Positions 3,499-17,434 of a stretch of DNA of 17,434 bases are shown in pieces. Source of the stretch: a virus (lineage: Duplodnaviria; Heunggongvirae; Uroviricota; Caudoviricetes). The translations under genes were made by a program, and so were the position numbers. Location of the stretch: IMG/VR virus record IMGVR_UViG_3300037067_014938, positions 1-17,434 of that record; one strand, given 5' to 3'. Under the pieces are notes generated by a model that saw only the letters and a list, made by a program, of their open reading frames with translations, was not told the origin of the DNA and searched no databases. How positions within the stretch are numbered: the first letter of the stretch is position 1; each line of letters starts with the position of its first letter.

Positions 3499-5349
3499 TT
3501 ATGATATATGAAGAGACATGGGTTTTACCTGATCAAGTAGCGTACTGTAGTCAATATTTGTTAACTCTTCATCTATAAGTTCTCTCATTCTTCCTACTGC
3601 ATATAATAACGCTGAATATAAATCTTTCTTTCCAGACATCCTTTTTCCTGTTCGTGGATCGACAGATTCAATATCAAATTTTGCACCCTTACCCGCTGGT
3701 ATAGCTTTTACTCTTACTAATTGACTTACTAATGTTTCTATATGCCCGGCTGATTCAAAGATTATAGTATTTTCATGATGGTATCTAAGTGGACGTGGAA
3801 AAATAAGAGACATATTTTCTATGATACCTCGCATATATCCATTAAATAACATATTTTGTTCTTGAGTAGTAGCATATAGTTTTAATATTGGCATTCCTTT
3901 TCTTACTTCTGTTTTATACGTTGGATCATAAATAGGTCGTTTGTTTATTCCAAGACTCATTAAATAATCGGCATCTGCTAAAAGATCAGATAATTCATAG
4001 CCACCACCTCTTGAATCCATAGCCACAGAAACAATATTAAATTTTTCCATTAAGTTATAAATTAATTTTACACGTTCTTGTTGACTCATTTTATTTTTTT
4101 CAAATGCGTAGACTACAGCCACATAATTTTTTAATTTACATGATTTTCCTACTTCATAAAATGAACATTGTTCACCAAGATTAGCTGTTGCACATTTTGA
4201 TATATCTCGTTCTTTATTATTTAAGGCACCAACTTTTATAACTACAAGTGCTGTATTATCACCAGATGGGGCCGTATCAACTCCAAGCAAACAATAAGCT
4301 GAACAACTCTCTAATGGTTCTAAAAATAAATCATCTTCTCTATCAAAAGATATTTCTTGTCCTTTTACAATACAATCGTACGGAAAATATCCACCCTGTA
4401 AATTAAGGGGTATATTTTTATTTTCTGAGTTCCATAAGGAAATATCTGTAGTTGGTATATTTAACTTTTGAAGAATTCTTTCATAGTTAATTCCCCATGT
4501 CATTATACGTCTTCCATCGGATGTCTTATAAAAAGTATCTTCTAAATTAAACTCATATACTGAAACATCATTAGCCGATAATGTTTTATCAACAACCTCA
4601 TCCGGAAGTGTAGTTAAATCTTCTTTATTTACATTTTCAAGTAATGATTTATAATATGCATATTGCATATAAAAATCTCTATACGTATAATCACAAGTAG
4701 AAATAGCAATAGACATATTTTTAATTGGTTGTTTATCCTCTGGAAGACTTGGATCATACAATACGTTCATCATAGGATCAAGAACAGCTTGATACAAATT
4801 TGAAGAAATCAAAAATGCCTCATCTTGTCCTAAAGTATGACATCTAATACCACGAATTGAATCACCTTCGGTTGATGCCGCTAGTGGAATACCAAGTATA
4901 GAAGAACCATTTGTAAAATCTATAGACCAGTATGATGGATCTTTTAATATTATTTTTTTAGGGTTACTGACACAACCTAAAGCAAATTGTACATTTTCTT
5001 GTCCGCCTAAATGACATTTTATAATTTTTTCGCATTCATATAAAACAATTTTACTTCCTCTATAACCTTGTCCCGCTGCAGCTACTTGTTTTAAGTTTGG
5101 ATAAAGTATCGCACGAAGTACATACAAAATTGCTAATAATATTGTTTTCCCCATACCACGAGAAGCAAAAAATAAATTAATTGGTTTACCCAATCCCCAA
5201 TCACGCAATACTAATGAATGATGGGGAGATAGTTTAAGCCCTAATAAATCTTTTGCTGCTACATCAAGGTGTTTACGATAAAAATAAATAGGAAACAATC
5301 TATCAATTGTTTCATTTATTGTAAATTGTGTTTTATTCAATTGGGTCAT
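3499..5349 (-). CDS. terL: Phage terminase large subunit
   Basis: Walker A ASRGMGKT, IRGIR followed by Walker B LGQDEAF, RNase H-like nuclease acidic residues (LLGVDTA, AMDSRGGG, KKDLYSA); 616 aa. Confidence 0.92.
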   Translation of the reverse strand: MTQLNKTQFTINETIDRLFPIYFYRKHLDVAAKDLLGLKLSPHHSLVLRDWGLGKPINLFFASRGMGKTILLAILYVLRAILYPNLKQVAAAGQGYRGSKIVLYECEKIIKCHLGGQENVQFALGCVSNPKKIILKDPSYWSIDFTNGSSILGIPLAASTEGDSIRGIRCHTLGQDEAFLISSNLYQAVLDPMMNVLYDPSLPEDKQPIKNMSIAISTCDYTYRDFYMQYAYYKSLLENVNKEDLTTLPDEVVDKTLSANDVSVYEFNLEDTFYKTSDGRRIMTWGINYERILQKLNIPTTDISLWNSENKNIPLNLQGGYFPYDCIVKGQEISFDREDDLFLEPLESCSAYCLLGVDTAPSGDNTALVVIKVGALNNKERDISKCATANLGEQCSFYEVGKSCKLKNYVAVVYAFEKNKMSQQERVKLIYNLMEKFNIVSVAMDSRGGGYELSDLLADADYLMSLGINKRPIYDPTYKTEVRKGMPILKLYATTQEQNMLFNGYMRGIIENMSLIFPRPLRYHHENTIIFESAGHIETLVSQLVRVKAIPAGKGAKFDIESVDPRTGKRMSGKKDLYSALLYAVGRMRELIDEELTNIDYSTLLDQVKPMSLHIS

Positions 5350-7339: not shown

Positions 7340-7611
7340 ATATCTTAGTATTACATAATCAACCGTATAGCAACAAAAAAGTCTTAAATAGGTTTCGAGC
7401 CGCTGATATCAAAGTAGCCCCAGAAGATTTTATTTTAGTGCTAAAAGTAAAAAGAAATGTACCAACGGAAGTTCTCAATAAAACTTGGGATTTGTTATTT
7501 GTAGATTCATCTTCGACAGCATTTGTGGATTATGAACATTACTTACGCAAAATGCGTAAAAAAGGTAATCCAATAATAAAATCTTTTAGTTATAGGACTG
7601 TAGGCCAATGA
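7336..7611 (+). CDS. Hypothetical protein (91 aa)
   Basis: ATGA overlaps at both ends; GGAGAGG RBS. Confidence 0.75.
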   Translation: MNILVLHNQPYSNKKVLNRFRAADIKVAPEDFILVLKVKRNVPTEVLNKTWDLLFVDSSSTAFVDYEHYLRKMRKKGNPIIKSFSYRTVGQ

Positions 7612-8465
7612 AAATAATCGGTATACATGGAAAAGCAAAATCCGGAAAAGATGAAATAGCTAAAATATTATGTTACTCATACGGTTGTTTACATATTACC
7701 TTCGCGGATAAAGTTAAAGAATATGGAATAAAGTATTTTGATTTAACAAAAGAAGTTTGTTATGGCACAAAAACAAAGGAAAGCAGACTCATTCTTCAAG
7801 GAATAGGTAATGGCATTAGACAACTTTTAACAAATGATTCTTTTTTAGTCAAAAGTATTAACCGTATTAGTATTGACAAATTAACTCCAAATGATGACTA
7901 CATAATAAGTGGTGATACCATTGGAGTATCGGGATACCCTACATGGGTAGAAGATATCGCGATTAAAGAATTTAATCTAACCCAATCAGAATTAAAATCA
8001 AAAAAGAAGTTAGTTAAAATTATATTAAGAGGAATTAGTACTCTAATTAAAGAAGAATATCAAACATTAATTAATGCAACAATAAAACAAAAGATATCAG
8101 GGGATCTTATATGGGTGCAACTTTTAATAGAACGATGCAAAGATATTGATGGAGTTATTGTAATATCAGATGTTAGGTATCAAAACGAAAAAGAATTTAT
8201 TGATAAAAACGGGGTCTGCATAAAAGTGATAAGAGAAGACAAACCGGATATTGAAACTGGAGAAACCCATCCATCAGAGATTAATTTAGATGAGATAAAA
8301 GAATCTGAATGGTTTTTTATTATTAGGAACATGCATAAAGAAAATTGGGAAGAATTACTAACTATTCAAACCAGTAATTTAATAAGTAAATTAAGAACAA
8401 AAAAATTCTTTTCACAAGAATATATAAAAACTAAATTTAAGACAAGTGGAGATTTGTATGATTAA
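7608..8465 (+). CDS. Phage-type deoxynucleoside monophosphate (dNMP) kinase with internal insertion/duplication
   Basis: P-loop GKAKSGKD, FADKVK, R-x-x-LQ-x-x-G, IWV, VISDVRYQNE and HPSE, in the order seen in the T4 gp1/T5-like dNMP kinase family. Confidence 0.88.
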   Translation: MKIIGIHGKAKSGKDEIAKILCYSYGCLHITFADKVKEYGIKYFDLTKEVCYGTKTKESRLILQGIGNGIRQLLTNDSFLVKSINRISIDKLTPNDDYIISGDTIGVSGYPTWVEDIAIKEFNLTQSELKSKKKLVKIILRGISTLIKEEYQTLINATIKQKISGDLIWVQLLIERCKDIDGVIVISDVRYQNEKEFIDKNGVCIKVIREDKPDIETGETHPSEINLDEIKESEWFFIIRNMHKENWEELLTIQTSNLISKLRTKKFFSQEYIKTKFKTSGDLYD

Positions 8466-8736
8466 GCATTATGCAAGTTTTGAACATCACGGAAAAACAG
8501 TATTCTCTGTTTGTGGATTAAGAGGAAAACATAGAAAATATTGTTTATGCTTTCAATGTTCAAAATTTAAACCGGATAAAAGAGACGAAAATTGTGCTAT
8601 TGCAAATGATGTGTATAACCTGTGTATAGCCCATAATTTAACAACCCCTGTTTTTGAATGTCCAGAATTCAATCCGATTCAAGGAAAAGATGGATACATG
8701 ATTTGGACTATCAGTTCTATTCAGGAAACTAAGTAA
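8458..8736 (+). CDS. Small Cys-rich hypothetical protein (92 aa), probable metal binder
   Basis: ATG at 8458 follows GGAG by 7 nt; 7 Cys including CLCFQC and ECPEF. Confidence 0.7.
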   Translation: MIKHYASFEHHGKTVFSVCGLRGKHRKYCLCFQCSKFKPDKRDENCAIANDVYNLCIAHNLTTPVFECPEFNPIQGKDGYMIWTISSIQETK

Positions 8737-9038
8737 TGGATTTACATGAAACAATTTTAAAATTAGACAATTATAAATGCAGATATTCTGGGTGTACAAG
8801 ACAAGAATTACAGGTTCATCATATTATACCTCGGTCACAAGGTGGCAAAGATACAGAATGGAATATGATAACTTTATGTTATTATCATCATGATTTAATT
8901 ACACGCAATAAATTATCTGATGAATTTATACTAGGGTTACATTTAGGAAATTCTTATTTTAGGTGGACAAGAGCATTAAAATGGCACTTAATTAAACAAC
9001 AACTACGGAAAAAAGGCAATAAAAATGAGAAAAGATAA
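8736..9038 (+). CDS. HNH endonuclease
   Basis: C-x4-C...LQVHHIIPRSQGGKDTEWNMITLCYYHH: HNH beta-beta-alpha-metal motif with Zn ligands. Confidence 0.9.
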   Translation: MDLHETILKLDNYKCRYSGCTRQELQVHHIIPRSQGGKDTEWNMITLCYYHHDLITRNKLSDEFILGLHLGNSYFRWTRALKWHLIKQQLRKKGNKNEKR

Positions 9039-11079
9039 GTCACTTTCTATTGAACTTTATGAAAGAATAAAAGGCACAGTTGCACCAGTATTAGAACAAT
9101 TTCTATCTATATCTCCCGATGAAAGATTAGAAAGGGAACAACATGGAGAAAATTTGGCAACTATATTAACCGATGCACTTCATCCAGTTATTGAACATAC
9201 CAGAATTAGCTCTATTCTTATTCTTATGGAAGAGGGTATAGGAAATATGGTTATGCTTACTCCAGTTTTAAGAAATTTAAAAAGCACTCATCCGGGTTTG
9301 AAAATAACTGTTCTTTGTAAGAATCCCGCCGCTCAGGTAATCCAGGGATGGGAATGTGTAGATAAAGTCATTACTGAATTTGATTATAATTATTATGATT
9401 TGGTTTATATAACCATATGGGGACAACAGCTAGCCCAAAAGTATAGTGAAGAATTAAAACAATATACGAAATATGTCCTTGCATCATCTTTGAAAACATT
9501 TCATGAAACAATGCAACACATGTCCGTGGCCTCATTCTTAGAATCATCTACTAATTTGAGTGATACCCATTGCCAAGTCGCATATGATGAGACATCAAAG
9601 TCAATACTTGATTATACACACAATAAAGGAAAGTATATTATATTTGCAAATACAGCATTAAGACTTCCCGGTGATCCGTGGAAATCAAAACGTTGGCCAT
9701 ATTATATTGAATTAGCTGAAATAATAAAAAATAAACATCCTGAGTATACGGTGTACCTTGTTGGAACAAAAGACGACGCTGAAGAATTCGAAGGAGTAAA
9801 ATTACCAGATAATATGGATCTCAAATTTTTTGATTCATTAGATATTCCACATTTGGCATATTTAATATCAAATGCAGAGTTCTTTGTTGGCAATGATTCA
9901 GGGCCAGCACATATTGCTGCAGCAGTTGGAACTAAGACATATGTCTTATTTGCACCAACTCTTATAAGCAAAAATAAGCCCCTTGGTAAAAATGTAACTA
10001 TCCTTCATAAGAATATACCCTGCTCCCCTTGTCAATATACTGAGAGATTTGGAAATTGTGATTGTATAGGTTATATGTCTGCACATGAAGTTTATAATGA
10101 AATTTTTTATCCACAACAAACAAAACCTTCAGTATTATTAGTTGGAGATACTTCTTCGGGTGCATTTAGAAATGAGATTTCAATCAAAAGAGTATTAGAA
10201 AAAGAATTAAAAATGAAAGTAACAATGTATGAATATAGACAACGAGAAAATAAATTAAAAAGTAATATTGAGATGACATATGAATTACTTAATAATATAG
10301 TGCATAACTCATATGATTATGTGCTTATTTGTGGAGGACAAACTCTAGTTCCTGATATTCTTTCGACGCTACCCCGATTATCCCCAAAAACAAAACTTAT
10401 CAATTGGTACGTGGATAATCGTAAAACTGTTGAACCTTGGTTTGCTAGATTAAGCTCCATTTGTAAGGCATCTTTTTGGTCTACTGGTGATCCTAATTTA
10501 CTTTCAAAAGTTTTTTCTCAAACTCAAAGACCATGTATGTTCTTGCCTATTACTCCGGATGAACATCTGTTCAAACCTATGCCTGAAGTAAAAAAAGATA
10601 TAGATGTACTGTTTGTTGGTACACCACACTCTAAAGAAAGGGTTGAACTTTTAGAATATCTTGTTAAAAATGGAATAAAAATTGAAATTTATGGTGATGG
10701 GAAATGGCCAGAATCACTAAAGAAATATGTGCATCCCGGAGTGTTTGATAAGGATTTTGTTAACTTGCTAAATCGTGCCAAGTTAGTTCTTAACATTAAC
10801 ATAGTTAATGATGTTCCTTTATATTTTTCAGATAGATATTTTCAACCCATGGCAGTTAAAACTGTAGGTTTGAATAAGCGTGTTCCAAACATAGAAGATA
10901 TGTTTGAAGATAAAAAACATATGTTATTGTATAATGCACCCGAAGATTGTTTAAAGTTAATTCAAGAATATCTTCCCAAAACGGAGGAACTTCAGAAAAT
11001 TTCTGAGGAAGGACATAAACTTTATATCGAAAAGTACACCTTGACTAAAATGCTTAACCAAATGTTTGAGGTAATATAA
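9025..11079 (+). CDS. Bifunctional glycosyltransferase: GT9 (heptosyltransferase-like) fused to a CgeB-like GT-B module
   Basis: GT9 motifs GIGNMVMLTPVLRNLK, KRWP, FVGNDSGPAHIAAAVGTKTYVLF and PCSPC in the N-terminal half; CgeB-like DVLFVGT, RVELLE, IYG-x-x-KW, KLVLNI and SDRYF in the C-terminal half. Confidence 0.85.
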   Translation: MRKDKSLSIELYERIKGTVAPVLEQFLSISPDERLEREQHGENLATILTDALHPVIEHTRISSILILMEEGIGNMVMLTPVLRNLKSTHPGLKITVLCKNPAAQVIQGWECVDKVITEFDYNYYDLVYITIWGQQLAQKYSEELKQYTKYVLASSLKTFHETMQHMSVASFLESSTNLSDTHCQVAYDETSKSILDYTHNKGKYIIFANTALRLPGDPWKSKRWPYYIELAEIIKNKHPEYTVYLVGTKDDAEEFEGVKLPDNMDLKFFDSLDIPHLAYLISNAEFFVGNDSGPAHIAAAVGTKTYVLFAPTLISKNKPLGKNVTILHKNIPCSPCQYTERFGNCDCIGYMSAHEVYNEIFYPQQTKPSVLLVGDTSSGAFRNEISIKRVLEKELKMKVTMYEYRQRENKLKSNIEMTYELLNNIVHNSYDYVLICGGQTLVPDILSTLPRLSPKTKLINWYVDNRKTVEPWFARLSSICKASFWSTGDPNLLSKVFSQTQRPCMFLPITPDEHLFKPMPEVKKDIDVLFVGTPHSKERVELLEYLVKNGIKIEIYGDGKWPESLKKYVHPGVFDKDFVNLLNRAKLVLNINIVNDVPLYFSDRYFQPMAVKTVGLNKRVPNIEDMFEDKKHMLLYNAPEDCLKLIQEYLPKTEELQKISEEGHKLYIEKYTLTKMLNQMFEVI

Positions 11080-11366
11080 TGGATAGAAAAACTAATGTCA
11101 TGCATGTAACTCCAGAAATGACAGATAATCAAGCTGATATAGTTGGCGTTCTTTCATTTTCTCAATTAATGGTTGAAAGATTAATTGAGGCAAAAGAACA
11201 AGGAAAACATGGATGGCATACTAATTTAATTACATTAGAGTACTTAGAAAATAAATTAGATCTCGCTGTTAAAAATAATGATTATCTTGATATTGCTAAT
11301 TATGCTATGATGATTTATCACAAAAAAGAAATGTTAAAAGAGCTTATTAATAAACATGAGGATTAA
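11079..11366 (+). CDS. Small all-alpha phage protein, possibly NTP-pyrophosphatase-like fold
   Basis: TAATG overlap with the upstream gene; motif GKHGW...LENKL...DYLDIANYAMM recalls a common phage hypothetical family. The fold assignment is a guess. Confidence 0.5.
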   Translation: MDRKTNVMHVTPEMTDNQADIVGVLSFSQLMVERLIEAKEQGKHGWHTNLITLEYLENKLDLAVKNNDYLDIANYAMMIYHKKEMLKELINKHED

Positions 11367-11613
11367 TATGCCGATTAATACAGAAAAATTTCAAGTGACT
11401 ATCGTTTTAAATGAACTTGATGGTTCACGAAATAAGAAAAAATTAATAGCATTTGATTCAGAAGAACAACGAGATGGTTTTTTAAAAAAATGTAATCGTC
11501 ATGTATTATATGATTACTGGAGTTATTCATATGGGTTAACTTTTTTAGAGCTTTCTGATGGATCATTAATTAATTATTCACACATAGTTAGAATAGAAAA
11601 AGGAAATGTATGA
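11356..11613 (+). CDS. Hypothetical protein (85 aa)
   Basis: Overlaps both neighbours; no recognised motif. Confidence 0.65.
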   Translation: MRINMPINTEKFQVTIVLNELDGSRNKKKLIAFDSEEQRDGFLKKCNRHVLYDYWSYSYGLTFLELSDGSLINYSHIVRIEKGNV

Positions 11614-12668
11614 GAATTATATATGCAAGAATGGCGGGTTACGGTTTTGTTTCAACTCCATCTGATGCCGTAGTAAGAGAGTTAGAAAATTTAGGACATA
11701 CTGTTTTTTGGACTGATAACTTGTCATATTTACCAACTGACAAATATGATTTTGTATTTTCTCCATATGAATCAGCAACAATTTTGGGGGATGCTATATC
11801 TAAGATTTTGGGTGTACCCCATTATGCTCATATTGAAGTTGTACCGCCGTGGAGATATATTCAAAATATAGATTTTCAAAACTATGGTTTGTCAGCAAAT
11901 GACCCCGAATTACAGCCAGATATTTTCAGAAAAACACGGGCATATTATGCCCAGGTTTTAATGGCCTATAAAAATGCTACTATTTGTAGTACATCTAATA
12001 AATGTAGGTTAGATTACATGCAAATAATGAGCGAAAGACAAAATATATTACTCAGATATCCATCTATTGATACAAGAATAATAGAATGTGCAAAAAAGAT
12101 GTACTCACCTAAAAAAGACCCTAAAAAGATAATTACAATTTCTAGAGCAATGCCAATAAAAAGATACGACTTACTAATAAAAGTAATGAATGAAATTAAA
12201 ACTCCAAATATGACTTGGACTATCATTGGTGAAGGTCCAATGATTGAAATTGTTAAAAAAGAATTAACAAATCCAAACATTAAATTAGAAATCCTTGGAG
12301 TAAAGTGGGGATGGGCAAAATGGTATGAACTAATGAAAGCTAGTTACATGATATATGCCATGGGAGGCATGCCACCTATCGAAGCTGCAATGCTAGATGT
12401 AATGCCAGTGGTAATAGAAAATGAATCTACATTACACTTACCGGAATTTGATAAATTTATGGAGTATAACTTTAACAAAAATATGCCCATCTTTAAGTCC
12501 AATAAGATAAAAGAAATGGCTCAACGTATGGATGAAGAGATTCTTAATAAAGATGTAGCACCGGACCTTCTTATAATAAAAGATGACTTTCTTAATGGAA
12601 AAATGGGTGTAACAACGTCAAAACAAAATGCAATTCAATTAATTGACAGGATGAGCCATGTTGTCTAA
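11610..12668 (+). CDS. GT4-like (GT-B fold) glycosyltransferase
   Basis: C-terminal Rossmann-like segment IITISRAMPIKRYDLLIK...WTIIGEGP...GMPPIEAAM. Confidence 0.75.
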   Translation: MRIIYARMAGYGFVSTPSDAVVRELENLGHTVFWTDNLSYLPTDKYDFVFSPYESATILGDAISKILGVPHYAHIEVVPPWRYIQNIDFQNYGLSANDPELQPDIFRKTRAYYAQVLMAYKNATICSTSNKCRLDYMQIMSERQNILLRYPSIDTRIIECAKKMYSPKKDPKKIITISRAMPIKRYDLLIKVMNEIKTPNMTWTIIGEGPMIEIVKKELTNPNIKLEILGVKWGWAKWYELMKASYMIYAMGGMPPIEAAMLDVMPVVIENESTLHLPEFDKFMEYNFNKNMPIFKSNKIKEMAQRMDEEILNKDVAPDLLIIKDDFLNGKMGVTTSKQNAIQLIDRMSHVV

Positions 12669-13617
12669 ATTTTTAATAACAGGTGGAGCGGGTTTCGTTG
12701 GCGGGAATTTAGTTAGATATTTGCTTGCCAATTCAGACGTAACCTCTCATGTTACAATTCTTGATAATTTTTCTACTAAGGGTTCCTTAGAAAATGCCAA
12801 AGGTATCAAAGATGAATTTAAGGGTAAAGTAACTCTTATTAAAAATAACCTATACTCTGCAAGTTCCAAACCAGAATTGTTTACAATGGTAAAAAAACAT
12901 GATTATATTATGCATCTCGCAACGTGTGATATCAGTCAAAGTTCTATAAATCCAGAACAAGCCGTATATACGAATATACATGGAACAAGAGAAGTGTTAG
13001 AAGCATGCAAAAAATATGAAAAAAGATTATTTTATGCCTCTTCAGCTTCAGTGTATGGAAATCAGTTGATATTACCAATTCCTGAAGATACTGTCTTACA
13101 TCCATTATCTATGTATGCTGTTACAAAATTAACAGGAGAACAACTTTGTTTATTATACCACGATGAATATAATGTTCAAGTTTCTATTGGGCGGTACTCA
13201 AATGTTTACGGGCCTAATTATTTTATTGCTAACCCTTATAGTGGATTAATAACAAAGTTACTTGCTTTATTTAAAAAAGGAAAAATTCCCCAATCAATTG
13301 AAGTAAAAGGTGATGGATCTCAAACTAGGGATTATGTTCATGTATCTGATATAATATATGCATCTATGTTAATTTTATTTTCGCCTAGAGCAATAGGTGA
13401 AATATTTAATATTGGCACTGGGATAGAAACTAGTGTAAATCAAGTTATCAATTTATTTAGAGAAACTTTTGATGTACGAGTTTATCATACAAGTGATAAC
13501 CATATTGATAATATTAGACGAAGAAGTTTAAATGCAGAAAAAATAAGATCAAAACTCAAATGGACTCCCACGGTTTCTTTAAAAAATGGGATAGACGGGT
13601 TGTTAAGAAATGTGTAA
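12658..13617 (+). CDS. NAD-dependent nucleotide-sugar epimerase/dehydratase (extended SDR)
   Basis: GGAGFVG NAD-binding motif, ASSASVYG, catalytic YAVTK (YxxxK), RYSNVYGP, GDGSQTRDYVHV, FNIGTG. Confidence 0.93.
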   Translation: MLSKFLITGGAGFVGGNLVRYLLANSDVTSHVTILDNFSTKGSLENAKGIKDEFKGKVTLIKNNLYSASSKPELFTMVKKHDYIMHLATCDISQSSINPEQAVYTNIHGTREVLEACKKYEKRLFYASSASVYGNQLILPIPEDTVLHPLSMYAVTKLTGEQLCLLYHDEYNVQVSIGRYSNVYGPNYFIANPYSGLITKLLALFKKGKIPQSIEVKGDGSQTRDYVHVSDIIYASMLILFSPRAIGEIFNIGTGIETSVNQVINLFRETFDVRVYHTSDNHIDNIRRRSLNAEKIRSKLKWTPTVSLKNGIDGLLRNV

Positions 13618-14635
13618 AATTGGGATTATTGGATATGACGCCCCTACTGGATTAGGGGTGATTATTTCTGAATTCAAAAAACATTTAGATATTTCAGAAC
13701 ACCTTATTATTAAACACCCTTCATTTATAAATAGTCCAATAAATTGTACAAAAAATGCTGGAGAATGCAGCGATGATGAGTTTATTACTTTTGTAGAACA
13801 ATCCACATTTGACATACTTGTTATTATAGAAACTCCATTTAACTGGAATATTCTTCATATGGCCCATAAATTGGGTATAAAAATCGTATATATTCCTATG
13901 ATGGACGCCATGTCAATAAACACAGTTAATAAATACCATATGTTTATAGATAAGGTTCTTTGTTTTACAAGGTATAGCTTTAAACATTATAAAGAATACT
14001 TTAAAAAAAGTTCAATAGTCTCATATCTGCCTTATCCGGTAGATACAGATATTTTTTCTCCAGAAAGACTGTTAAATGTTTCTAATAAAAAGTTATTTCT
14101 TCATAACCAAGGCAATGGAGGTGCACATTTTAGAAAAGGTTCTGATTTAATTTATCAAGCATTTAAAAATTTACCATCTCTAACTTGCCATGTTAATAAA
14201 CAACCAACATTGAATAAAATGTATCATTTACCAAATGATTTACCTAATTTAACTATTAAGACAATGTTATATAATGAACCAGCAGATGCATATTCATATG
14301 GAAGGATATATTTAGCTCCCTCTAAACGAGAGGGATTAGGGTTACCTATATTAGAAGCTATGGCTTGTGGTCTTCCAGTGATAACTACGGATGCTCCCCC
14401 GATGAATGAGCATGGTAAAAATTTATTAGTTTCAGCAAAACAAATATATTACACTAAAGATAATGATACTCCATTTTTAGATATATCTGTAGATGATCTT
14501 ATTTGTGTTATAAAATTTGCTTCTAGTAACTTGTCGTATATGACAGACCTTTCAAAAGAGAATAGAGATTATATGATCTCTAATCAATCATGGGAAGCAT
14601 TAAAACAAAAATATATTGAATATATGGAAAATTAA
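13610..14635 (+). CDS. GT4 glycosyltransferase
   Basis: RKG motif and EGLGLPILEAMACGLPVITTD (E-x7-E retained). Confidence 0.9.
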   Translation: MCKIGIIGYDAPTGLGVIISEFKKHLDISEHLIIKHPSFINSPINCTKNAGECSDDEFITFVEQSTFDILVIIETPFNWNILHMAHKLGIKIVYIPMMDAMSINTVNKYHMFIDKVLCFTRYSFKHYKEYFKKSSIVSYLPYPVDTDIFSPERLLNVSNKKLFLHNQGNGGAHFRKGSDLIYQAFKNLPSLTCHVNKQPTLNKMYHLPNDLPNLTIKTMLYNEPADAYSYGRIYLAPSKREGLGLPILEAMACGLPVITTDAPPMNEHGKNLLVSAKQIYYTKDNDTPFLDISVDDLICVIKFASSNLSYMTDLSKENRDYMISNQSWEALKQKYIEYMEN

Positions 14636-14637
14636 TT

Positions 14638-14940
14638 ATGCCAACTTATACGTATAAATGTAGCTCATGTAAGAGTAAATTTGACGCATATTCACCTAAA
14701 TACGACTATTTTTTTAGGACAATTTCTCAATGCTGCGGTGCAATCAGCTATAGGGTTTTTTCGTTGGGCATTTTTGCTATAAAAATAAAATCAACGGAGG
14801 TAACCCATAAAACAAAACGAAATGTTAGTAAACTTACTAATGGCATACCTATTGGTGAAGTTCCTGGTGATAAAGAGTACACCAAGGAATATGGCGGACA
14901 TAAAATTGGTGAAAAAGGATATATAGGACCATTACCATAA
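14638..14940 (+). CDS. FmdB-like zinc-ribbon protein
   Basis: MPTYTYKCSSC...SQCCG...RVFS matches the MPxYxYxCxxC zinc-ribbon pattern. Confidence 0.75.
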   Translation: MPTYTYKCSSCKSKFDAYSPKYDYFFRTISQCCGAISYRVFSLGIFAIKIKSTEVTHKTKRNVSKLTNGIPIGEVPGDKEYTKEYGGHKIGEKGYIGPLP

Positions 14941-15890
14941 TGAATATATTAATATGCGGAACATTTGATATTTCAAATTCAACTAGACATGAAGTTAAGG
15001 TTGCTGATTGTCTTAAAGAACTTGGTCATAAAATAATTCTGTATGACTACAGAGAAAATTTACGTTATTACGGCGAGTCTGTATGTATAACTGGGTTATT
15101 TATAAAAGCAAGAGCTACACAAACGGACTTAATAGTTATCTTTTCAGGAAAAGGGCTATCCGCAAAACTTGTTGAATTTCATAATTCAACAAATATACCA
15201 ATACATATATGGTATCACGATTATAACTTAAACTCTCCAAAACAACAATGGTTAGTTAAGTTAGCCTTAATCAGCAATAAAGTATTTTTAACTACGGGTG
15301 ATTTAAACTTCAGAAATTTATACCCAAACAAATATAACGAGCCTGCTATATTTTTACCAACAACAGCTTATGATAAAGTATTTTTCCCTGTTGAGATTTC
15401 AGAAAGAGAATATGACATATCGTTTATGGGTACGCCACATACGCACCGTATTGAATTAATGCGTTACTTGGTAGGTAACGGGGTACGCCTAGTTATCCAT
15501 AGTTATCCATCAATGGATTTTAAATGGCCGGAAGATTTAAAACCATATGTAACAGTTGCTAAATTTAATACGTTAGCAAACATAGTTTTGAACAGTTCAA
15601 AATTAATTTTAAATCCTAATGTTACTCAAGATGTACCACTTTGTTTCTCTGATAGATATTTTATGCCATTAGCCACTAAAACATGTGGGATTAATGAATA
15701 TTTTGAAGGATATGAGGAACTATTTAAACATGACGTCCATATGAGCATATGGAAAACGTATGACGAGTGTTTACACCAAATAAAACAACTGTTAACTGAT
15801 AAAGAAAAACGAATAAAGATTGCTCAAAATGGATATGACTTATATATGGAAAAATACAGACTTCAAGATATGGTAAAAAAATTATTATGA
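14940..15890 (+). CDS. CgeB-like glycosyltransferase, paralog of the C-terminal module of the 9025-11079 gene
   Basis: DISFMGTPH, RIEL, KWPEDLKPYV, KLILN, DVPLCFSDRYF and final NGYDLYMEKY helix all align with the 9025-11079 C-terminal half. Confidence 0.82.
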   Translation: MNILICGTFDISNSTRHEVKVADCLKELGHKIILYDYRENLRYYGESVCITGLFIKARATQTDLIVIFSGKGLSAKLVEFHNSTNIPIHIWYHDYNLNSPKQQWLVKLALISNKVFLTTGDLNFRNLYPNKYNEPAIFLPTTAYDKVFFPVEISEREYDISFMGTPHTHRIELMRYLVGNGVRLVIHSYPSMDFKWPEDLKPYVTVAKFNTLANIVLNSSKLILNPNVTQDVPLCFSDRYFMPLATKTCGINEYFEGYEELFKHDVHMSIWKTYDECLHQIKQLLTDKEKRIKIAQNGYDLYMEKYRLQDMVKKLL

Positions 15891-16735
15891 ATTTACTACA
15901 TGAACAAGTAATAAGAAATTACTATGTTGAAAAATGCATAGAATCTGCCACTAAACAAGGATTATTAACGGGGTCGCTCCATCTTTCAATTGGACAAGAG
16001 GCGTGTGATGTTGGTATAATAAATGCTTTTGATAACCCGCTAGTCTTCGGAAATCATAGAAGTCATGGACAATTTTTAGCAGCCACAAATAACCTTGATA
16101 GTCTAATTATTCAATTAAAAAATGGAATGAGTCAGCATTTGTATGCAGAAAATAAGTTTATCTCCCATGGTGTACAAGGAGGGTTATGCCCTATAGCCGT
16201 AGGAAATGCTTTAGCTTTTAAAAATAAGGGTATAAAAAGAAGAGTTCTATGTTTCATAGGAGATGGCACACTCGCTCAGGGTACTTTTACAGAATCCTTG
16301 TATCTAGCATCAATTTATCAGGCACCAATAACATTTATTATAATAGATAATAAATATTCCATGTCAAATACTAAACTTCCTTCATGTAAAGAAAATTTTT
16401 ATTTTGTAACAGACTTAATACGAGCTTACAATATTAAATGTTATGTGTTGTTGGACTCAAGAAATGTTTTAGGGATATATAACATGGGAGCAAATATAGA
16501 TGCCCTCGCTGGCCCAGATTCTATTTATATAAGATGCAATAGGTTATGTGGCCACTCTTGTTCAGATACTCAAGTGTACAGACCTAAAGAAGAATTAACA
16601 AAAGAATACTTTGATAAATTTTCTCCATTTATTTTTTCAAAAAATGAGATAAATCCTGTTATAGCCTATAAAATAAAGACAGAGGTAATAGAAACCTTTG
16701 TTAAACATTTACCTGAGTTTAAATATGTGCACTAG
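15887..16735 (+). CDS. ThDP-dependent dehydrogenase E1 alpha-like subunit
   Basis: HLSIGQEA, NHRSHG, ThDP/Mg motif GDG-x26-DN, and RLCGHSCSD corresponding to the E1 alpha GHS loop; 282 aa. Confidence 0.92.
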   Translation: MNLLHEQVIRNYYVEKCIESATKQGLLTGSLHLSIGQEACDVGIINAFDNPLVFGNHRSHGQFLAATNNLDSLIIQLKNGMSQHLYAENKFISHGVQGGLCPIAVGNALAFKNKGIKRRVLCFIGDGTLAQGTFTESLYLASIYQAPITFIIIDNKYSMSNTKLPSCKENFYFVTDLIRAYNIKCYVLLDSRNVLGIYNMGANIDALAGPDSIYIRCNRLCGHSCSDTQVYRPKEELTKEYFDKFSPFIFSKNEINPVIAYKIKTEVIETFVKHLPEFKYVH

Positions 16736-17264
16736 ACATGAAATAAACCAAGCATTACGTGATTTAATGACAAAAAATCCCAATATAATCTTATTAGGAC
16801 AAAGTATACGCGACCCATATGGCGGAGTAATGAAATGCACTAGAGGACTAACTAAAGATTTCAGTGATAGAATTATTGATTTACCGATATGTGAATCTGG
16901 ATCTGCCGGACTTGCAATAGGTTTAGCTATGCGAGGATATATTCCAATATTAGAAATTATGTTTTCTGATTTTATAACGTTATGTTACGACCAACTATAT
17001 AATATGCTCGGAAAAATATATGGGATGCATCAATTAAACACAAAGATTATTATCCGGACAATGCAGAATGATGATAAAATGTATGGTCCATCCCATAGTC
17101 AAGTTATGCACGCTGTAATAGAATCTCTTAATGAAGGAAAGTATCCCTGCCCGGTATCTTGGATTTACACTAGTAAATACAAAGTTTATTCCAAGATTAT
17201 TGAAGAAGCCTTGGAAAAAGCAAATCCTTTAACAGTTATTCTTGAACGAAAGGAACTATATTAA
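16725..17264 (+). CDS. E1 beta-like subunit, pyrimidine-binding domain only (179 aa)
   Basis: ATG at 16725 preferred over the TTG at 16698. INQAL...LLGQSI...YGGV, DLPICES (conserved Glu), EIMFSDF, GPSHSQ; ends at VILERKELY-stop with no transketolase C-terminal domain. Confidence 0.88.
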   Translation: MCTRHEINQALRDLMTKNPNIILLGQSIRDPYGGVMKCTRGLTKDFSDRIIDLPICESGSAGLAIGLAMRGYIPILEIMFSDFITLCYDQLYNMLGKIYGMHQLNTKIIIRTMQNDDKMYGPSHSQVMHAVIESLNEGKYPCPVSWIYTSKYKVYSKIIEEALEKANPLTVILERKELY

Positions 17265-17434
17265 TGAATACACTAGTGTTTTTACCTGGAGGTAAAGGAT
17301 TTGAGGTTGCTTGGGATTTTATATATAATAATCCAAATATTTTAACTTCATACGATTCAACAAATGTGATGATCATTGATGACCGTCCAATACGTATTAA
17401 TACCTATGATTGTATAACTGATGAACAAACTGGA
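17264..17434 (+). CDS. 5' part of a CDS truncated by the window edge; possible PglD/NeuD-like sugar acyltransferase N-terminal domain
   Basis: TAATG overlap at 17262-17266; open to the end: MNTLVFLPGGKGFEVAWDFIYNNPNILTSYDSTNVMIIDDRPIRINTYDCITDEQTG. Beta strand-GG-x-G-helix...IDD loosely resembles PglD_N. Not in the ORF track. Confidence 0.55.
   Translation, partial: MNTLVFLPGGKGFEVAWDFIYNNPNILTSYDSTNVMIIDDRPIRINTYDCITDEQTG

Follow-up and report, generated by a model that had tools for sequence, protein, structure and literature searches.

An E1-like gene pair and its acyltransferase partner

The window analysed here, that is, the whole stretch of 17,434 bases under study, is the start of a 117,045-base viral record (IMGVR_UViG_3300037067_014938, Caudoviricetes; 99% complete according to CheckV). 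Near its 3′ end, two genes, here called alpha and beta, encode proteins resembling the two subunits of E1, the thiamine diphosphate (ThDP)-dependent component of pyruvate dehydrogenase (PDH) and related 2-oxoacid dehydrogenases. Within the window, the pair forms the 3′ end of an 11-gene glycosyltransferase operon, and the transcription unit runs on past position 17264, where a coupled acyltransferase gene starts. These three genes appear to be the true functional unit, a cassette of ~2.1 kb that couples 2-oxoacid/ThDP chemistry to a sugar acyltransferase and that occurs in phages and in several phyla of bacteria:

15887-16735, + strand: alpha, E1 alpha-like protein of 282 aa with the ThDP diphosphate-binding domain (Pfam E1_dh, E 2.8e-23)
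16725-17264, + strand: beta, E1 beta-like protein made up of the Pyr domain only, 179 aa (from ATG 16725) or 188 aa (from TTG 16698) (Transket_pyr, E 3.4e-21)
17264-17434 in the window (whole gene 17264-17986 of the genome), + strand: PglD/PerB-type hexapeptide acyltransferase of 240 aa (Hexapep, E 4.4e-14)

Judging from the N-termini of its relatives, beta more likely starts at the ATG at 16725 (MCTRHEIN...) than at the TTG called by the program (16698). This ATG overlaps the stop codon of alpha (TAG, 16733-16735) by 11 nt, and the ATG of the acyltransferase gene overlaps the stop codon of beta (ATGA at 17264).

An earlier, sequence-only reading of the window had described the ThDP motifs of both subunits as intact, which closer inspection confirmed. 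Alpha contains the complete ThDP/Mg motif (G125-D126-G127 ... D154-N155) and the histidine of the GHS motif (H223); the PISE and HSQ motifs of solved E1 beta chains are matched by Glu66 and His133, respectively, of beta. Within the family of short proteins to which the pair belongs (see below), the invariant residues of alpha are H32, G125-D126-G127, N155, G222-H223-S224, D227, T228, Y231, and R232, and those of beta are E66, F89, F92, and H133. E66, H133, and the GHS histidine are equivalent to E59-beta, H128-beta, and H271-alpha, respectively, of the Geobacillus E1 (PMC2663715). In the latter, H128-beta touches pyruvate, and both histidines have been implicated in the reductive acetylation of lipoate (PMC2663715). 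Both active-site loops, which gate the second substrate in the Geobacillus enzyme, are also retained in the phage E1. The Transket_pyr match covers residues 12-187 of beta, Transketolase_C is absent, and the protein terminates at the ExKxxY domain boundary, beyond which long-type relatives still have a C-terminal domain of ~150 residues. In the Geobacillus complex, this C-terminal domain of E1 beta is the part on which E2 docks.

PDH E1 alpha and beta are the best named sequence matches of the pair (the best PDB match of alpha being human PDH E1 alpha; E 1.6e-19, ~30% identity), though the NCBIfam scores for PDH E1, 117 and 74 bits, fall well short of the curated cut-offs of 394 and 321 bits, respectively. 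Still, it is extremely improbable that the phage carries an auxiliary metabolic E1 of the PDH, acetoin, or branched-chain 2-oxoacid dehydrogenase (BCKDH) type, which joins the host complex and redirects central carbon metabolism. Across the whole 117,045-base genome, neither the catalytic domain of E2 (2-oxoacid_dh, PF00198), nor a lipoyl domain (Biotin_lipoyl, PF00364), nor Transketolase_C (PF02780), nor an E3-type flavoprotein (Pyr_redox_2, PF07992) gave any match at E<=1; as a positive control, each of these four families was detected in 10 to 14 of 14 control genomes. Thus, the lack of E2 and E3 genes, initially noted only for the window, holds for the complete genome, and what follows the acyltransferase gene are genes for a single-stranded DNA-binding protein (SSB), DNA polymerase A (PolA), and a sigma factor. 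The missing C-terminal domain of beta argues in the same direction, as does the location of the pair inside a glycosyltransferase operon with which it is translationally coupled.

So does phylogeny. In a tree of 119 alpha sequences, the short alphas (n=25) formed a single clade (SH-aLRT 100) on a stem of length 1.65, which was placed outside the clade of reference E1s flanked by E2/E3 genes (Priestia pdhA, Thermus acoA, Acinetobacter acoA; support 98) and also outside that of the E1 alphas named as PDH by their sources (support 98). The short alphas, therefore, do not nest with PDH or acetoin E1s, a comparison that had been proposed as a check on the sequence-only reading. That reading had also maintained that this is not a PDH metabolic pair and, given the lack of partners, the truncated beta, and the separate alpha clade, it was right: the E1 pair is not housekeeping PDH, and a true PDH can, in practice, be excluded. 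Automated annotation will label the two genes as pyruvate dehydrogenase and count them as auxiliary metabolic, which is wrong.

A conserved cassette and its lipoyl-armed relatives

By sequence, the acyltransferase matches PerB, PglD, the acetyltransferase domain of PglB (PglB-ATD), and VioB, and its relatives are matched by PglD_N. The AlphaFold2 (AF2) model of the protein (pLDDT 83, pTM 0.81) consists of an N-terminal Rossmann-like domain followed by a left-handed β-helix (LbH). When this model was compared with solved structures by Foldseek, the top matches over the full length were PglB-ATD, WeeI, PerB, PglD, VioB, and Pcryo_0637 (probability 1.00 for each of the first five; matches including 4m99, 4m9c, 4ea7, 3bfp, and 7txp; TM score, by target, up to 0.77), that is, NDP-amino-sugar N-acetyltransferases only. 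Across 18 relatives of the acyltransferase, short and long, His153 does not vary. This residue falls within the stretch that HMMER matched to PerB (residues 78-198 of the query, 69-191 of the chain) and is, from this alignment, predicted to lie near His141 of PerB. The short acyltransferases share a conserved C-terminal VYQG tail, which is absent from the lipoyl-fused forms described below. Prediction of a complex of alpha, beta, and the acyltransferase with family alignments resulted in a score of 0.00, which speaks neither for nor against binding.

The alpha protein of the phage is a member of a separate family, whose proteins are 234-284 aa long and 40-79% identical to it (~30% for ordinary E1 alphas of the PDH type). 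In all 10 distinct loci of this short type for which the genomic context was available, the genes for short alpha, beta, and a PglD-like acyltransferase (186-250 aa) lacking a lipoyl domain succeed one another in this order. These loci are from the window phage, a related phage of 130 kb, a phage of 53 kb, five more viral contigs, an Acidobacteriota chromosome, and a metagenome-assembled genome (MAG) of an unclassified bacterium. Beta consists of the Pyr domain only (162-198 aa) in 9 of the 10; that of the MAG (L008; JBDRNJ010000006.1, 3546-6079) has a C-terminal extension of ~120 residues, which matched nothing in Pfam and did not match our own Transketolase_C hidden Markov model (HMM) either. 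The notion that this beta represents an evolutionary intermediate was, therefore, dropped. One phage locus (L006) has beta and the acyltransferase gene separated by an additional ORF of 116 aa, which could be assigned to no known family.

The closest phage relative with known context, whose alpha is 59% identical, has the cassette at the head of an operon also containing four glycosyltransferase genes, a methyltransferase gene, and genes for a short-chain dehydrogenase/reductase (SDR), a UDP-GlcNAc-2-epimerase-family protein (Epimerase_2), and a DegT aminotransferase; the cassette contributes the only LbH acyltransferase of that operon. In another phage, the cassette is located between the gene for GDP-mannose 4,6-dehydratase (two genes upstream of the cassette) and that for DegT. 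By analogy with perosamine synthesis, the cassette would here fill the slot of PerB in the pathway.

A separate observation concerns the cyanophages S-SM2 (a Synechococcus phage; L002:8962-10170) and P-TIM68, which encode a fused, minimal E1-like protein of 402 aa (PHROG 34187) with an alpha-like N-terminal and a beta-like C-terminal half, in S-SM2 inside a heptose/nucleotide-sugar cluster. This protein represents a lineage of its own, and a strongly divergent one, of phage ThDP enzymes in a sugar context.

To collect relatives of the acyltransferase, a profile built from its short form was run exhaustively by HMMER over 1.84 billion representative proteins. This superseded a word-indexed homologue search, in which the few relatives retrieved were followed by LpxD, matched by virtue of similar repeats. 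Among the best 150 of the 36,948 matches in all, 59 were short, 75 carried a lipoyl domain, and 16 were of other types (13 tandem-LbH proteins and three proteins of 280-313 aa without detected lipoyl domain). The lipoyl-bearing proteins are rather uniform, as 70 of the 75 are 331-440 aa long with the match beginning near residue 160. Generic PglD/NeuD-type proteins, the bulk of the matches, ranked below both the short and the lipoyl-bearing forms. Fusions of E1 with the acyltransferase (of the Rosetta-stone kind) were considered and rejected; the long proteins among the best matches (P0091, 865 aa; P0113, 638 aa; P0125, 1780 aa; and others) are tandem LbH repeats, with two to four PglD-like units in the three named.

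In the distant bacterial relatives, an alpha of ~300 aa and a beta of ~335 aa (or a fusion of both) are followed by a protein of ~375 aa composed of Biotin_lipoyl (with the ETxKA motif), a PSBD-like segment (resembling E2's peripheral subunit-binding domain), PglD_N, and Hexapep, an architecture verified in loci L009, L012, L016, L018, L020/L095, L045, and L050. To judge from its domains, the ~375-aa protein corresponds to an E2 in which a sugar N-acyltransferase has taken the place of the catalytic core. The bacterial parent form appears to rely on a swinging lipoyl arm instead of coenzyme A (CoA), and the phage form dropped this arm, too. Lipoyl-LbH genes are found in amino-sugar contexts: in 9 of 20 such loci, DegT is encoded on the same strand within 10 kb, in 7 of these 1.1-3.6 kb upstream, and a flagellin-glycosylation island of Pseudoalteromonadaceae comprises RmlA, a 4,6-dehydratase, an isomerase, a C-methyltransferase, DegT, E1 alpha, E1 beta, lipoyl-LbH, methyltransferases, and Maf.

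In the short form, the loss of the lipoyl domain and the PSBD segment from the acyltransferase coincides with that of the C-terminal domain from beta. In the Geobacillus complex, PSBD docks onto this domain of E1 beta, and the joint loss of both fits such docking. The phage cassette can, therefore, be regarded as a probable derivative of a widespread bacterial module for sugar acylation, which has lost both its lipoyl and its docking domains. The superfamilies of all its parts are known, and tailoring of sugars by E1-like proteins has been proposed before; a description of the cassette itself, especially of its lipoyl-less, docking-domain-less phage form, was not found. Literature searches on lipoyl plus PglD/NeuD and on E1 plus hexapeptide plus glycosylation returned no paper on such a module, which, because of their incomplete coverage, is weak evidence of novelty.

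The surrounding operon

The co-oriented and tightly packed operon spans from position 9025 to the end of the window, with the ends of neighbouring genes overlapping or abutting. Upstream of alpha, it consists of the following genes:

9025-11079, + strand: fusion of GT9 and Glyco_trans_1_2 glycosyltransferases, 684 aa (Glyco_transf_9, E 2.7e-23; Glyco_trans_1_2, E 2.3e-20)
11079-11613, + strand: two small ORFs
11610-12668, + strand: GT4 glycosyltransferase (Glycos_transf_1, E 1.6e-6)
12658-13617, + strand: extended SDR, GalE-type NDP-sugar 4-epimerase (Pfam Epimerase, E 2.7e-52)
13610-14635, + strand: GT4 glycosyltransferase (Glyco_trans_1_4, E 7e-13; PHROG 2170)
14638-14940, + strand: zinc-ribbon protein, 100 aa (Zn_ribbon_8, E 6.3e-5, below the curated cut-off; FmdB-family CxxC_CxxC, E 9.9e-5)
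14940-15890, + strand: Glyco_trans_1_2 (CgeB-like) glycosyltransferase (PF13524, E 4.9e-13), its stop codon overlapping the start of alpha

The operon thus contains five glycosyltransferase domains in total, and the Pfam matches of the neighbours lie far above chance, which bears out that the E1 pair is embedded among glycosyltransferases and an SDR. The GT9 part of the first gene product belongs to the heptosyltransferase family. Neither a priming transferase acting on a lipid carrier, nor a flippase, nor a polymerase is encoded in the region, which suggests a soluble target, for example a protein, for the glycosyltransferases of the phage. DNA hypermodification as their target is unsupported, as the genome contains no gene of the thymidylate-synthase family (including nucleotide hydroxymethylases).

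To the SDR, the sequence-only reading had attributed the generation or reduction of a keto intermediate. Its best PDB match is a UDP-glucose 4-epimerase (4zrm, E 3.3e-38), it belongs to PHROG 540 (nucleotide-sugar epimerase), and its signature is that of GalE (SASVYG, Y153, K157), the Asp/Glu residues of 4,6-dehydratases being absent. An epimerase of this type is predicted neither to make nor to fix a stable keto-sugar, and the attribution has to be given up. A sugar nucleotidyltransferase of the NTP_transferase family (PF00483) was not found in the phage genome.

Directly upstream of the operon lies a gene for an HNH endonuclease (100 aa, 8736-9038). Farther upstream, a protein with weak similarity to the large terminase subunit (PHROG 2, E 8e-9) is encoded at 3499-5349 on the − strand and a deoxynucleoside monophosphate kinase (PHROG 139, E 1.5e-25) at 7608-8465 on the + strand. 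Comparison of the window with phage records by megablast gave zero matches.

Possible reactions of the cassette and comparison with known systems

We tentatively favor, as a possibility that falls somewhat short of probable, that the E1 pair and the acyltransferase work in sugar acylation. The ThDP-dependent E1 would decarboxylate a 2-oxoacid (pyruvate being the default guess), the C2 or acyl unit would be attached, at an amino or a hydroxyl group, to a sugar bound by the acyltransferase, and the five glycosyltransferase domains of the phage would build the acylated sugar into a glycan. Lipoate as the oxidant and carrier might be replaced by a lipoyl protein of the host, by another disulfide, or by a redox-neutral route via acyl-ThDP. 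That E1 and the acyltransferase share one reaction sequence with an acylated sugar as its product is inferred from several lines of evidence: the strict linkage and translational coupling of the three genes; the closest kin of the acyltransferase carrying a lipoyl arm, that is, hardware for acyl transfer; the amino-sugar contexts, where the acyltransferase of the cassette occupies the N-acyltransferase slot of the respective pathways; the invariance of its histidine at the putative catalytic position; and the retention, by E1, of the histidines and loops serving the second half-reaction.

Several observations weigh against this assignment. No carrier is encoded in the phage genome, and a search of all ORFs of the short-type loci with our own lipoyl HMM did not detect a lipoyl domain; classical reductive acylation would thus lack both an encoded carrier and an oxidant. 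We know of no lipoate-free acyl relay starting from an E1. The chemistry may have changed upon loss of the lipoyl arm, which would fit the long stem of the short-alpha clade as well as a deletion of nine residues beside the SQH motif of short alpha; an origin of this clade within lipoyl-linked E1s gets no support either way from the deep backbone of the alpha tree. DegT is encoded in only 2 of the 10 short-type loci and was not found in the genome of the window phage, so that the host would have to supply the amine acceptor, unless a hydroxyl group is the target. Glycan genes are also not a constant companion of the cassette: in the MAG, it lies by itself, flanked by rplL and rpoB and far from any glycan genes, and in two phages of ~50 kb (L006:10001-12415 and L091:9992-12120), it stands alone, moron-like, beside genes for a ParB-methyltransferase and terminase. 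Finally, the function of both the long and the short modules is deduced from sequence and context.

A more radical version of acylation, a self-contained machine needing neither lipoate nor CoA, appears decidedly unlikely. Here, a PglD-type transferase would be docked at the active-site funnel of E1, and acyl-ThDP, formed either from a β-substituted keto acid (redox-neutral) or via a small-disulfide oxidant, would be passed directly to the amino sugar bound by the transferase. If it existed, phages could decorate glycans, their own or those of their hosts, with unusual acyl groups without tapping the acetyl-CoA pool.

Unlikely, but a serious contender, is that the pair acts as a ThDP-dependent carboligase, which adds a pyruvate-derived hydroxyethyl or acetyl unit to the carbonyl of an NDP-keto-sugar (or of a keto-sugar within a glycan) to yield a C-branched sugar; the acyltransferase would then acylate a neighbouring group or merely hold the nucleotide sugar. 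Carboligation needs neither oxidant nor carrier, in keeping with a cassette that has shed its lipoyl arm, its PSBD segment, and the C-terminal domain of beta, and the long stem and remodelled loop of short alpha suggest neofunctionalization. Two-carbon branching of sugars by E1-like proteins also has precedents, although the activity of AviB1/AviB2 in avilamycin synthesis is only a proposal; knockout of pau11 abolishes paulomycin production, a branching role of Pau11/Pau12 having been proposed. However, Pau11 and Pau12 are full-length proteins (325 and 345 aa, respectively), encoded in a cluster with TDP-hexose 4,6- and 2,3-dehydratases, for which no LbH partner has been described. The one phage cassette situated downstream of GDP-mannose 4,6-dehydratase does have a producer of a 4-keto sugar nearby; yet, dehydratase-bearing loci also have DegT, which would consume the 4-keto group by amination. 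Among the genes examined in the window phage, with its GalE-type SDR and without any gene of the NTP_transferase family, no source of a 4-keto sugar was found. Furthermore, branching leaves unexplained why E1 is strictly linked to a PglD-type N-acyltransferase with an invariant histidine, and the lipoyl arm found in the closest homologous systems speaks for acyl transfer.

It is also rather unlikely that the two activities are independent, with the acyltransferase being an ordinary PglD-like enzyme using acetyl-CoA and the minimal E1 catalyzing some other step, such as the conversion of a 2-oxoacid to an aldehyde or the boosting of acetyl units through a lipoyl protein of the host. All members of the PglD/PerB family compared depend on CoA, the VYQG tail of the short acyltransferases could restore a CoA site, and no carrier is encoded, all of which would agree with independence. 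Independence would, however, not predict adjacency in 10 of 10 loci, together with translational coupling, across phages and three lineages of bacteria, nor that the closest kin of the acyltransferase are lipoyl-fused and paired with E1; cooperation with a host E2 is unlikely as well.

Of the mechanism put forward by the sequence-only reading, the general idea that the pair tailors sugars for the glycosyltransferases of the phage is plausible, and C-branching specifically is unsupported. AviB1/AviB2- or YerE-like branching of an NDP-4-keto-6-deoxysugar disagrees with the GalE-type SDR, the lack of NTP_transferase and DegT, and the acyltransferase partner, and YerE belongs to a different family of ThDP enzymes. 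Lipoate-free acyl transfer and E1-catalyzed sugar branching coupled to an acyltransferase would, if true, each be a new glycan-tailoring chemistry, and either would define a new source of phage-made diversity in surface or virion sugars.

Several known systems resemble the cassette in part. With the E1s of 2-oxoacid dehydrogenases (Geobacillus and human PDH, BCKDH, and acetoin dehydrogenase), the phage pair shares the GDG..N motif of alpha, the activating glutamate of beta, and the equivalents of both histidines, but identity is only ~30%, the C-terminal domain of beta and E2/E3 are missing, and the phage proteins form a separate clade. PglD, PglB-ATD, WeeI, PerB, and VioB have the two-domain fold in common with the phage acyltransferase, whose conserved His153 may correspond to their catalytic histidine; in contrast to the phage enzyme, which is always coupled to E1 and only 14-19% identical to them, they stand alone and use acetyl-CoA.

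AviB1/AviB2 and Pau11/Pau12, which were compared by description only, are likewise E1-like pairs that lack E2/E3, are encoded among sugar-tailoring genes, and presumably take pyruvate as the donor, but Pau11 and Pau12 are larger than the phage subunits (282 and 179-188 aa). YerE, which catalyzes the branching step in yersiniose A synthesis, is a single-chain flavoprotein resembling acetolactate synthase; it shares the ThDP-dependent use of pyruvate in sugar tailoring and differs in its architecture, TPP_enzyme_N/M/C on one chain as opposed to E1_dh and Transket_pyr on two. In relays of the QncN/QncL/QncM type, known from natural-product pathways, a transketolase/E1, a lipoyl-bearing E2-like protein, and an acyl carrier protein (ACP) act together. 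There, too, a ThDP enzyme hands a C2 unit to a biosynthetic acceptor and not to the CoA of central metabolism; however, these relays keep the lipoyl E2-like protein and deliver to ACP, whereas the phage has neither, its terminal enzyme being a sugar acyltransferase.

The closest counterpart is the lipoyl-armed module of bacteria, which has the same order of alpha, beta, and LbH, the same catalytic residues in E1, and locations in glycan or amino-sugar loci, and the LbH proteins of both forms are mutual nearest relatives. In the phage form, the lipoyl domain and the PSBD-like segment are missing, so that the LbH protein begins directly at the PglD_N-like domain; the C-terminal domain of beta is gone, alpha is 20-40 residues shorter with nine residues deleted from the loop, and the VYQG tail is extra.

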